Sequence record: NC_070989.1
DNA from: Escherichia phage vB_EcoP-CHD5UKE1
Reading direction: 5' to 3' (one strand)
DNA length: 64,000 bases
Both the position numbers and the translations under genes were made by a program. The notes beneath the pieces are model-generated. The model made no database searches. It saw only the letters and a program-made list of their open reading frames with translations, and was not told the origin of the DNA. Shown here piece by piece: positions 16,948-61,095 of the stretch (its first letter is position 1; every line of letters begins with the position of its first letter).

Positions 16948-17092
16948 TAAGTTTTAAAAACCATCAAATTCGTCATACATCCCAATTCTCTTCAGAAGTC
17001 TGGATGTTCATCTTCAAAGCATCCTGAGATGCCTCCGTAGAACCAATCTGATTTATTGCCAAGAATGACAACTTCTTCATTCATATACCCTC

Positions 17093-21808: not shown

Positions 21809-22222
21809 TTATATGAATTTCTGCATACCTTTGATACGAGGGTTATCATCACCAACTCTCGATTTACAGTAAGCGATAAAAGATTCAGTATTGAGGTTAT
21901 CCTTTTGAGAACCCCACTGGAGATTGTCTGCTCTATTGTTGCTCGGATTATCATCCAGATGCATAACAACAGCGTTAGGAAAAGGTTTCTCACCATGAAA
22001 AGTCTCACACACTAAGATATGAATCCTTTTCTTAAACTTTCTTTTCCTGTTTACAAACACCATTCTTCCATCTTTCTCTCTATATCCGCTATATGGTTTT
22101 CCTACGAAAAGCCTAACTCCACCATTATTCGTTATGGCTGTGAAAGGCTTAATCTTAACTCTACCAAAAGATGATACGGAAAGGAAATCATAATAGGGGT
22201 GATCTTTCCAGACTTCTTCCAC
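21809..22222 (-). CDS. HNH homing endonuclease
   Basis: HLDDNPSNNRADNLQWGSQKDN HNH core and N-terminal W..HP.Y..Y.VS..G motif. Confidence 0.75.
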   Translation of the reverse strand: MEEVWKDHPYYDFLSVSSFGRVKIKPFTAITNNGGVRLFVGKPYSGYREKDGRMVFVNRKRKFKKRIHILVCETFHGEKPFPNAVVMHLDDNPSNNRADNLQWGSQKDNLNTESFIAYCKSRVGDDNPRIKGMQKFI

Positions 22223-22231
22223 TATTTATCC

Positions 22232-22978
22232 TCAAAATGGGCTATCGTTGTCGTCTTCATAAGTAGAAGCAGGCTCTTTATCAATCGTAGGGATTGAAGG
22301 AGTAGCTTCTTTCTGCTCTGTTTCAGAAGCACGAGTAATTTCACGACCAGCCAGAGGCATGTTCTTAGCGTCATTAGCTTGGGTAAGCAGGTTGCGCTGG
22401 AACGGGAACATCAGTTGATAGGATGCTACGTTCTCATCGGTTTCCGCATACGGTTCGAAGAATACCAGAGGACTGCGAGCTTCACCAACTGCTGCACGAT
22501 ATTTGGTTGGGATTGGAGAAATGGTTTTGATGGAGTTTTTAACTTCACCAGCTTTGTTAGTGTAAGAGTTAACCAGAATATTAACAGGCTGACCTAACAG
22601 AACATCCTTGAACCAAGACAGATCACCTTTCAGTGCTTGAATACTTGGGTCAATCATCTTGCAAAGATCAAGAATACCAGAGTTCTTAGCTCGTGGGTTT
22701 ACATCATAACTCTTGAACTGGCAAGCCGGACGTGGTTCTAATGCCTTACCATCGGAATCTTTACCAGTAGCATCAACACCAATCAGCTCGAAAGCCAAAT
22801 CCATACGGAAAGCCGGATTCTTAGGAGTTACTGCTTTGGTCTTCGGGTCAATCCAAGGGTCACGATTGTGAACACCCAAACCTACTACACGAACGATACG
22901 TGCTTCGTATTCACCATCAGGGATTACATCGTAGTTGGATTTACGGGAAGCAGTTGCGATAGTTGGAATCATAGACAT
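22232..22978 (-). CDS. putative ssDNA-binding protein (T7 gp2.5-like, acidic C-terminal tail ending in Phe)
   Basis: Size ~248 aa, acidic C-terminus ...YEDDNDSPF; RBS AAGGAAA; preceded by TAATGTATA motif. Confidence 0.45.
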   Translation of the reverse strand: MSMIPTIATASRKSNYDVIPDGEYEARIVRVVGLGVHNRDPWIDPKTKAVTPKNPAFRMDLAFELIGVDATGKDSDGKALEPRPACQFKSYDVNPRAKNSGILDLCKMIDPSIQALKGDLSWFKDVLLGQPVNILVNSYTNKAGEVKNSIKTISPIPTKYRAAVGEARSPLVFFEPYAETDENVASYQLMFPFQRNLLTQANDAKNMPLAGREITRASETEQKEATPSIPTIDKEPASTYEDDNDSPF

Positions 22979-23037
22979 ATTTTAATTTCCTTATTTAATT
23001 TGAAAGATTGTTGCTCTCTTTGAGCGGTTATGTATAG

Positions 23038-23046
23038 TATACATTA
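23038..23046 (-). promoter_or_regulatory. candidate phage-specific promoter core TAATGTATA (minus strand)
   Basis: Exact 9-mer 60 nt upstream of the ATG at 22978. Confidence 0.5.
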
Positions 23047-23109
23047 CGCTTATACCGATAAGAGTACTATATAATATAAGTATCTTTGGTAGTAGATATA
23101 ACACACTAG

Positions 23110-23118
23110 TAATGTATA
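23110..23118 (+). promoter_or_regulatory. TAATGTATA motif on the plus strand inside the minus-strand block (possible antisense/sRNA promoter)
   Basis: Exact 9-mer; no plus-strand ORF downstream; followed 95 nt later by a large hairpin. Confidence 0.3.
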
Positions 23119-23214
23119 TATTGTATAGCTGATAAAGTTATTGCAGGCTTGTATATTGGGCAATTCACAGAATCCCTTGCAAGTACCGAAGGGCAGGAGC
23201 CACCTGCGAGATAA

Positions 23215-23280
23215 AAATAGAGAATTAAGGAATCCTTGATTTAGGTTGTAGGGACTCCTAGGGACTTTGATTCTCTATTT
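23215..23280 (-). terminator. large hairpin (11-bp perfect stem, 44-nt loop), terminator-like on minus strand
   Basis: aaatagagaat...attctctattt inverted repeat; on the minus strand the 3' arm runs into TTTTTAT. Confidence 0.35.
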
Positions 23281-23394
23281 AAAAGAATATTAATTACTTA
23301 TTACCTAAATAATTAACTAACTTACTTAAACCAAATTCAAGAATAATAGATAAAAAGATTATTCCTAAGAAAGCTAAAAAGTAAAGGATATAAG

Positions 23395-23571
23395 TTACCA
23401 TTCAAGTAAACCTTTAAAGTTAGTTTGTTCTACTATCCTCTGATAACGAAGATTAGAATCAGCTTGTTTCTTTAACATCTCATTATATTGATCTCTGATA
23501 GAGTCTTTATAAACTACAGGTTCTTTAAATACTGAGATCTTCTTTTTCTCAGAGTTAGATAGTACATCCAT
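23395..23571 (-). CDS. small hypothetical protein (58 aa; start uncertain)
   Basis: ORF-track ORF 23395..23694 trimmed to an internal ATG because its 5' part overlaps 23555..23770 in another frame. Confidence 0.35.
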   Translation of the reverse strand: MDVLSNSEKKKISVFKEPVVYKDSIRDQYNEMLKKQADSNLRYQRIVEQTNFKGLLEW

Positions 23572-52834: not shown

Positions 52835-52910
52835 TGGTCGGGACGGAAGGATTCGAACCCTCGTAAGGCGAGTTAGAAGCTCGCTGCCTGTTCCACTAGA
52901 CTACGCCCCG
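52835..52910 (-). tRNA. tRNA-Arg (anticodon UCU), 76 nt with encoded CCA
   Basis: Cloverleaf folded by hand: acceptor CGGGGCG/CGTCCCG (one G-U), D-stem GTCT/AGGC, anticodon stem GCGAG/CTCGC with loop CTTCTAA, T-stem GAGGG/CCTTC with loop TTCGAAT, discriminator A, CCA. Confidence 0.8.
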
Positions 52911-61086: not shown

Positions 61087-61095
61087 TATACATTA
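61087..61095 (-). promoter_or_regulatory. TAATGTATA motif (minus strand) inside the early regulatory region
   Basis: Exact 9-mer; about 50 nt upstream of a TTAAAGAGCGG copy. Confidence 0.35.

Follow-up and report, generated by a model that had tools for sequence, protein, structure and literature searches.

Why does a phage promoter motif point into DNA that holds no gene on its strand? The question arises in a 64,000-nucleotide (nt) stretch of Escherichia phage vB_EcoP-CHD5UKE1 (NC_070989.1), hereafter the window, to whose full length all positions refer. Between genes 40 and 41 this stretch carries two copies of the motif TAATGTATA, one on each strand, and a 66-nt hairpin. The first-pass annotation had suggested that a plus-strand transcript of roughly 170 nt ending at the hairpin could be a regulatory or antisense RNA. 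Comparison with related sequences brings us to about even confidence in the following answer: positions 23086-23284 form an unannotated small noncoding RNA gene that depends on the phage sigma factor gp36 and meets the upstream operon at a hairpin that both share. The comparison supplies promoter hallmarks and promoter conservation, a lack of coding potential, covariation in a 5' hairpin, a hyperconserved 3' module, and sharp boundaries; from these we infer the existence of the transcript, its start at 23125, and its 3' end at the hairpin.

The window comes from a phiEco32-like phage (Kuravirus). Matches to the region were found in 97 records of Escherichia and Shigella phages, all from the phiEco32 group (Gordonclarkvirinae, with the genera Kuravirus, Suseptimavirus, and Nieuwekanaalvirus); the region is 98 to 100% identical to phiEco32, Bas91, and WFI101126 and lies on the same strand as in the phiEco32 record. 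The phiEco32 segment 13595-63500 (our locus L037) has coordinates equal to those of the window around the finding (window 1-49906), and the phiEco32 annotation supplies the genes that bound the gap:

22232-22978, minus strand: gene 40, from the phiEco32 annotation.
23294-23401, minus strand: gene 41, a 35-amino-acid hydrophobic peptide, annotated in phiEco32 and matching PHROG 24970.

The annotated gap between them measures 315 base pairs (bp) (22979-23293) and is the longest in the 50 kilobases (kb) of phiEco32 annotation that correspond to window 1-49906, where the runners-up are 235 and 181 bp. The gap had earlier been described as unusually long, which is right, and as 416 bp, which is too large once gene 41 is placed. 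Between window position 16958 and 49906, where the annotation that we examined stops, every annotated gene lies on the minus strand. The plus-strand copy of the motif lies inside a cluster of replication and nucleotide-metabolism genes.

The motif itself is known. According to the literature, promoters recognized by Escherichia coli RNA polymerase together with gp36 have TAATGTATA as their single -10-like element (consensus tAATGTAtA). Six gp36 promoters are listed, upstream of genes 6, 13, 26, 40, 58, and 68 (PMC4331800, PMC8948821; Pavlova 2012 as relayed in PMC8948821), and transcription starts 6 to 8 bp downstream of the element (PMC8948821). Initiation at such promoters requires the gp36 holoenzyme and is stimulated by gp79. 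A 2025 cryo-electron microscopy (cryo-EM) study of the gp36/gp79 open complex on P68, the promoter of gene 68, found that the C-terminal domain of gp36 reads the -35 region (PMC12276001). Residues R187 and Y186 contact -37G and -34A, and mutating these bases abolishes transcription on P68 (PMC12276001); mutation of -11G also impairs gp36 transcription in a published assay. In the window, exact TAATGTATA occurs five times against 0.59 expected, and none of 100 shuffles reached five. Both copies in the gap lie where the first-pass annotation had put them, at 23038-23046 (minus strand) and 23110-23118 (plus strand).

23038-23046, minus strand: -10-like element TAATGTATA of P40, an exact motif match; gene 40 is among the genes with a published gp36 promoter (PMC4331800, PMC8948821).

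Because TAATGTATA is the published gp36 element and a promoter is listed upstream of gene 40, we equate the minus-strand copy with P40, which drives gene 40 from a predicted start at about 23031. The P40 element sits within a near-palindrome, TTATGTATA-G-TATACATTA (23028-23046), that yields a one-mismatch motif on the plus strand; this plus-strand half is not kept in Suseptimavirus relatives. The P68 element is found at window position 33658 on the minus strand, 40 nt upstream of gene 68, and the phiEco32 sequence is the same. Counting the first base of the element, T, as -15 puts G at -37 and A at -34 on P68, in agreement with the published numbering.

Read in this register, the plus-strand copy has the following parts:

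23086-23099, plus strand: -35 block TTGGTAGTAGATAT, identical to P68 from -39 to -26.
23100-23109, plus strand: promoter spacer, freely varying.
23110-23120, plus strand: -10-like element TAATGTATATA, the exact motif TAATGTATA(TA).

The plus-strand copy looks like a seventh, previously unlisted gp36 promoter with every sequence hallmark of a working one. The whole 14-nt -35 block TTGGTAGTAGATAT is identical in this copy and in P68, stands at identical spacing from the -10-like element (T/A)AATGTATATA that both share, and places G at -37 and A at -34, the bases contacted by gp36. The 11-mer TGGTAGTAGAT has exactly two sites in the window, 23087 (plus) and 33679 (minus, in P68). Across 17 aligned relatives from three genera, 11 of 11 columns of the -10 element and 10 of 14 columns of the -35 block are invariant, as are 0 of 10 in the spacer; by eye, 13 further genomes or metagenome contigs likewise combine conserved elements with a varying spacer. 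The promoter and the 5' hairpin that follows it were inspected directly in about 30 genomes. Between this promoter and P40, only 8% of columns are invariant in the 17 relatives. The promoter is kept where its surroundings are rearranged, for example in EcM-vB1-type phages, which have an extra open reading frame (ORF) between it and P40. In those genomes the insertion is about 145 bp long and the ORF has 47 codons. The P68-identical -35 block, the two-element pattern of conservation, and the survival of rearrangements are our reasons for reading this copy as a real promoter.

The first-pass annotation had also pointed out that no plus-strand ORF lies downstream of this exact motif, and indeed none that is conserved does. 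In this the plus-strand promoter is unlike the six known gp36 promoters, although a downstream gene is a property of the known cases and not a mechanistic requirement. Like the three middle gp36 promoters it lies in the middle-gene cluster; unlike the published six it points against that cluster, and its activity is a prediction. It is missing from the published lists of six promoters, all of which are upstream of genes, and one computational survey of gp36 promoters scanned only the strand of the downstream gene.

Downstream of the promoter, the relatives share a discrete unit made up as follows:

23125-23141, plus strand: predicted start A23125 and 5'-terminal hairpin P1 (AUAGCU-GAUAA-AGUUAU); the start is placed by the 6- to 8-bp rule (PMC8948821).
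23142-23187, plus strand: variable middle module, flanked by conserved UUGCA on its 5' side and ACCG(G)AAGGG on its 3' side.
23188-23284, plus strand: 97-nt 3' module, composed of a small hairpin, an A-rich linker, and P3.
23193-23207, plus strand: small hairpin GCAGG-AGCCA-CCTGC within the 3' module.
23208-23214, plus strand: A-rich linker within the 3' module.
23215-23280, either strand: 66-nt hairpin P3 with an 11-bp perfect stem.

The unit at 23125-23284 has its own putative promoter and no conserved ORF, and it forms a discrete block conserved beyond neutral expectation. In the 3' module, 88 of 97 columns (91%) are invariant across the 17 relatives. For comparison, 82%, 88%, and 39% of first, second, and third codon positions of gene 40 are invariant in six of these relatives. 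Past the hairpin, conservation drops at once to 4 to 10% invariant columns; on the strength of this fall we take the -35 block and the 3' foot of the hairpin as the two limits of the conserved unit, with a transcribed part of 160 nt. The 3' module is present once in each of the 97 phage records at an identity of at least 92%, and none of the records annotates a feature there. These records are exactly the set that encodes a gene 40 product of at least 80% identity. The unit stays while its neighbors change, gene 41 being present or absent and an extra ORF appearing in EcM-vB1. Conservation of the plus-strand motif and of the hairpin had been named beforehand as one of the points on which the proposal of an RNA could fall, and both are kept.

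Such figures bear on the simplest rival, that the motif is promoter-like by chance and that recent common ancestry or recombination suffices to explain its conservation. The family is indeed closely related, 57 of the 97 records being at least 95% identical across the region, and a fifth exact TAATGTATA, at 61087-61095 on the minus strand in the early-gene region, is also outside the six published gp36 promoters. The copy at 61087 lacks the GTA at -36 to -34 that the other copies have in common, however, and the P68-identical -35 block at the same spacing has an estimated probability of about 1e-6 (an 11-mer found twice in 128 kb, counting both strands). Conservation, moreover, is patterned and not uniform: it is complete in the -10 element, nil in the spacer, very high in the 3' module, and low just downstream, against 39% at the synonymous sites of gene 40. 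Given this pattern, we find the chance explanation scarcely credible. As for the copy at 61087, it could be a chance occurrence or another unlisted promoter; a stable hairpin (-5.6 kcal/mol) lies near its predicted start.

A sign of selection on a plus-strand RNA comes from P1, a 6-bp hairpin that begins exactly at the predicted +1 and in this way gives the start its only support, an indirect one. Its pairing is preserved in 97.6% of cells across seven distinct versions, and two of its six pairs show compensatory changes (U-A/G-C; C-G/U-A/A-U). None of 500 shuffles reached its covariation score, and slid-register controls were 28 to 52% paired. P1 folds with -2.9 kcal/mol on the plus strand and 0 on the minus strand, because one of its pairs in the window sequence is G-U. 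We considered and rejected a 5' hairpin as a general trait of gp36 transcripts: one lies near the start at P40 and at the 61087 site, and none does at P26, P58, or P68.

The module that follows P1 is exchangeable. Two unrelated versions occur between the same flanks: version A, that of the window, is 46 nt long, and version B, of about 74 nt, is carried by MN05, ECBP2, EcM-vB1, and five metagenome contigs (L005, L006, L013, L031-L035). Version B contains a 7-bp hairpin, UCUCUCA...UGAGAGA. The sole candidate for a plus-strand ORF (TTG start, 32 amino acids, 23141-23239) was rejected, being broken in relatives by 1-nt insertions or deletions and by replacement of the middle module.

At the 3' end, the perfect inverted repeat reported earlier is as described: arms AAATAGAGAAT and ATTCTCTATTT of 11 bp occupy 23215-23225 and 23270-23280, with 44 nt between them. 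Allowing one G-T pair, the repeat reaches 14 nt at 93%, and on the plus strand P3 extends to about 24 pairs through G-U pairs. The short repeat within the hairpin is likewise confirmed, TAGGGACT standing at 23249-23256 and 23259-23266, with 10 bp from one to the next, and at no other place in the window. A single lineage has GG in place of GGG, and the two copies have changed in concert. P3 is more stable than its shuffles on either strand, with -23.5 kcal/mol (z = -3.2) on the plus strand and -18.2 kcal/mol (z = -4.3) on the minus strand, and in each case none of 200 shuffles was as good. The unit as a whole folds better on the plus strand (-45.8 kcal/mol, z = -2.33) than on the minus strand (-35.3 kcal/mol, z = -1.25), and in 17 of 17 relatives tested the plus-strand fold is the more stable by about 2 to 10.5 kcal/mol. 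Substitutions in the 3' module were uninformative for assigning it to a strand: its 13 variable columns fall mostly in predicted loops, and do so in both strand models.

The sequences flanking P3 differ between the strands. On the minus strand the hairpin is followed by invariant UUUUUAUC, which gives U5 (U4 in one phage); on the plus strand it is followed by UUUAAAAG or UUAAAAUC. This brings up the alternative that the P3 block belongs to minus-strand mRNAs, as a terminator or attenuator, or as an RNase III-type processing or stabilizing site, at the end of the gene 57-41 operon. All that the plus-strand promoter would then give is incidental or interfering antisense transcription, through collision with the convergent operon, for instance, or through supercoiling that couples it to P40 at a distance of 94 bp. 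The U-run directly after the stem fits such a role, as do the more unusual stability of P3 for its composition on that strand, the absence of a U-tract on the plus strand, and the dedicated promoter P40 just downstream, where one would be expected after a terminator. A minus-strand terminator, which the first-pass annotation had seen in the hairpin, is accordingly possible so far as the U5 goes; the AU-rich base of the stem and its 44-nt interior speak against one, and a terminator consensus scan called none here on either strand. P3 thus departs from Rho-independent terminators in its stem base, its interior, and a U5 found on the minus strand only, and the terminator search of the SU10 authors likewise has none at this site. 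Nor would this alternative account for the P68-identical, conserved plus-strand promoter, for the covarying P1 that forms on the plus strand only, or for 97 frozen nt that include about 27 nt (23188-23214) beyond the termination point, since terminators and processing hairpins normally drift. On balance we consider a purely minus-strand role for the block rather doubtful.

The same hairpin invites comparison with bidirectional intrinsic terminators. As in those, one hairpin separates two convergent units (here the putative RNA gene and the operon of genes 57-41) and is flanked by an A-run and, on the opposite side, by its complementary U-run. P3 differs from them in its length of 66 nt, its AU-rich base, its branched interior, a usable U-run on the minus strand only, a sequence frozen beyond need, and the negative scan.

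Several observations weigh against a small-RNA gene. Covariation is confined to one short helix, P1, with seven distinct sequences. Outside P1 the RNA is invariant and so neither supports nor contradicts the structure model, which covariation cannot test there; the fold of the middle module is no better than that of shuffles (z = -0.95). The 3' module is equally compatible with a minus-strand RNA or with a role at the DNA level, and P3 is the more unusual on the minus strand. With no U-tract past P3 on the plus strand, intrinsic termination leaves a defined 3' end unexplained, and the plus-strand transcript could be a long antisense RNA. In one metagenome contig (L031, ERZ1034915 NODE-75), which is not among the 17 aligned relatives, TAATATATA replaces TAATGTATA; this G-to-A change at -11, at the equivalent of window position 23114, should cripple the promoter, and the contig may represent a natural promoter-down variant or an assembly error. 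Finally, the absence of the plus-strand copy from the lists rests on later compilations, and the original transcription study (Pavlova 2012) might include it.

Set against these points, the idea of a small or antisense RNA has gained promoter hallmarks, a conserved, structured, ORF-less unit (of about 160 nt in place of the roughly 170 nt first proposed), and a 5' hairpin specific to the plus strand; its proposed end at the hairpin is not backed by a U-tract on that strand. Structure and covariance analysis across relatives backs P1; the remainder of the unit is invariant.

How would such a gene work? If it exists, it would be transcribed on the plus strand, against all neighboring genes, by E. 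coli RNA polymerase carrying gp36. Its promoter being the twin of P68, a middle promoter, the RNA is expected in the middle phase, with gp36 and gp79. The product would be about 160 nt long here, and about 188 nt in relatives with the other middle module, and would consist, in order, of the 5' hairpin, the exchangeable middle module, and the invariant 97-nt module, with the 66-nt hairpin closing the conserved unit on its 3' side. RNAs are classically shielded from 5'-end-dependent decay by a hairpin flush with the 5' end, and an RNA that starts near 23125 would have P1 in that position. At the opposite end, protection would come from the strong 3' hairpin. In view of the missing plus-strand U-tract, the 3' end is more likely to arise by trimming or processing than by intrinsic termination.

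In the small-RNA model P3 may serve both strands, as an attenuator or processing site on the minus strand and as the 3' structure of the RNA on the plus strand. With its U-run, it would probably end or attenuate the convergent middle-operon transcripts (genes 57-41) on the minus strand, and P40 would then restart transcription from gene 40 onwards. A role of this kind would explain why P40 lies just beyond the hairpin.

As to the mode of action, we tentatively suggest, as a possibility well short of even and conditional on the RNA being made, that the invariant 3' module binds a protein in a sequence-specific manner and acts as a decoy or scaffold. Protein binding is favored because it is a better fit to 97 frozen nt that include direct repeats changed in concert; antisense overlap would arise automatically between convergent transcripts and so cannot explain a frozen sequence. 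A search for trans targets within the phage was unproductive, the longest perfect complementarity elsewhere in the window on either strand being 11 nt, as expected by chance. A bolder version, to which we give little credence, is that the locus represents a new class of regulatory RNA, made only after gp36 takes over the host polymerase. In such a class a host or phage protein and the 97-nt module would together make up a specific ribonucleoprotein; the module might, for instance, act as a decoy to a host RNA-binding regulator or defense sensor, or be a partner to the polymerase as modified by gp36/gp79. The exchangeable middle module, of which lineages have swapped two unrelated versions, would tune specificity.

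A promoter that serves no gene, inside a cluster of replication and nucleotide-metabolism genes, also recalls an origin of replication. In the primary origin of T7, an AT-rich region comes after two phage promoters (phi1.1A and phi1.1B). By analogy, the transcript of the orphan gp36 promoter could prime or activate DNA synthesis by the T7-like replisome (DNA polymerase, gene 53; primase/helicase, gene 75). The likeness extends to a phage-specific promoter, a noncoding transcript, and T7-like replication genes, and to direct repeats spaced by 10 bp and inverted repeats that are followed in kuraviruses by about 110 bp of very AT-rich DNA (judged by eye); conservation of sequence rather than structure would also suit a DNA site. 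The AT-rich stretch, however, falls in the poorly conserved DNA past the hairpin and is largely missing in the lineage without gene 41, where the hairpin abuts a phosphoesterase gene. Unlike the T7 origin, the conserved part is a structured 160 nt with covariation at the RNA level, and the covarying hairpin at +1 argues for selection on RNA. Cumulative GC skew tracks gene orientation and has no inflection near 23.2 kb, and a 1-nt change in the spacer of the palindrome AAGGA-A-TCCTT is tolerated, which is easier to reconcile with an RNA loop than with a protein-binding DNA palindrome. We therefore judge an origin unlikely.

Gene 41 suggests a further alternative, a cis-antisense arrangement akin to a type I toxin-antitoxin system. 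It encodes a short hydrophobic peptide and converges on the RNA unit, and the 3' end of its mRNA would overlap P3; the plus-strand RNA, overlapping that end by about 70 nt through the shared hairpin, would control the stability or translation of the message. The txpA/RatA and bsrG/SR4 pairs have this same convergent geometry, a small hydrophobic peptide gene and an antisense RNA gene that overlap at their 3' ends in a shared hairpin. Unlike in those pairs, the peptide gene is dispensable across the family and the RNA is not: at least eight relatives (ECBP2, Bas88, Bas86, E20-1, Paul, XT18, TH43, and NC-B) lack gene 41 and keep the RNA unit intact, and in EcoN5 the gene is disrupted by a 24-nt deletion and a 2-nt insertion. 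Gene 41 is thus dispensable, or it is not a gene in all members, and on this ground the explanation fails; automatic antisense complementarity also cannot account for the frozen sequence, and an addiction module is of no obvious use to a lytic phage. We consider it very unlikely. In the annotation, gene 41 overlaps the stop of gene 42 by 7 nt.

Searches beyond the family returned no relative of the unit. Rfam has no family at the gathering threshold anywhere in the window other than a tRNA elsewhere:

52835-52910, minus strand: tRNA-Arg (anticodon TCT), the sole Rfam or ARAGORN hit in the window.

Relaxing Rfam to E values of up to 10, for the region and for a version B relative, gave chance-level matches only (CRISPR-DR47 at 16 bits against a threshold of 39, tp2, RsaA, and CopA). 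Mimicry of a CRISPR repeat, an idea formed by eye from the likeness of GCAGG-AGCCA-CCTGC and GAGATAAA to the E. coli I-E repeat, was dropped, as the sole CRISPR-DR hit is at chance level, lies elsewhere, and is on the other strand. A host origin was likewise discarded, with no match in 5,426 complete E. coli genomes at E values of up to 10. Nothing similar to the 3' module was found in phages beyond the 97 records, IMG/VR and metagenome scans for deeper homologs returned the same family only, and our literature search found no noncoding RNA described in the phiEco32 phage group. The more distant phages 7-11 and Privateer have only 75 to 100 bp upstream of their gene 40 homolog, and the unit is absent from them. 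In three uncultivated relatives (82 to 90 kb; gene 40 products 67 to 70% identical to that of the window) the invariant block is a different one, about 60 nt long, TGGAAGCATCTAGCAAAGCTAGCATATCAAAGCTAAGCTAAGCTATATGCTTTATCCA:

L023:1375-1440, L024:1378-1445, and L025:1378-1445, opposite to the gene 40 homolog: long hairpin TGGAAGCATCTAGCAAAGCTAGCATATCAAAGCTAAGCTAAGCTATATGCTTTATCCA, in the same position upstream of gene 40.

This hairpin may be a positional analog of the element studied here, which hints that the site upstream of gene 40 hosts a functional noncoding element more widely.

On the other side of the gap, P40 is the promoter of gene 40, as the first-pass annotation had proposed for the minus-strand copy; its description of the gene as similar to a single-stranded DNA (ssDNA)-binding protein was not verified, since Pfam, PHROGs, and PDB sequence searches gave no functional assignment. 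Neither Pfam nor the PDB sequence search returned a match for gene 40, no function is assigned to its best PHROG (6599, E = 7e-119), and only two depositors name the product an ssDNA-binding protein. A single-sequence AlphaFold model was useless (predicted local distance difference test score, 36). The product has an acidic C terminus that ends in Phe (...EDDNDSPF), which we take to recall T7 gp2.5. Directly downstream of gene 40, a minus-strand ORF at 21809-22222 encodes a homing-type endonuclease of the HNH kind (Pfam HNH_3, E = 4.6e-13), which also has a NUMOD4 motif. phiEco32 has its HNH genes in another position, as genes 30 and 31, and among the relatives Bas89 and XT18 carry HNH genes on the other side of the locus.

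Small RNAs are known from virulent phages, among them the band C and D RNAs of T4 and those found by RNA sequencing (RNA-seq) in PAK_P3; RNA-seq has also reported small RNAs in phiR1-37 and PA5oct. Like these, the unit described here is short, ORF-less, structured, and intergenic, has its own promoter, and is conserved in close relatives, and it is known so far from its sequence. It differs from them in its phage sigma-driven promoter, the lack of a U-rich terminator tail, and an exchangeable middle module beside 97 frozen nt. The putative RNA has no sequence or Rfam relationship to any described RNA.

What is new here, and partly supported by the sequence comparisons, is a candidate phage small RNA together with a candidate seventh gp36 promoter. 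phiEco32 serves as the model in which sigma factors encoded by phages, and the displacement of sigma by gp79, are studied, and its map has been taken to hold six gp36 promoters, all serving protein genes. If our reading is true, the seventh promoter would add a noncoding output to this system. It would be the closest sequence twin of P68, the promoter studied by cryo-EM, and so a ready natural template for studies of gp36/gp79 transcription, and it would provide the family with a conserved RNA antisense to the middle cluster. The unit lacks an annotation in every one of the 97 sequenced relatives, which include several therapy candidates or phages of the BASEL collection, and genome engineers who insert into the seemingly empty 315-bp gap would disrupt it. 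Should the frozen module turn out to be an RNA that binds a protein specifically, the finding would gain further significance.

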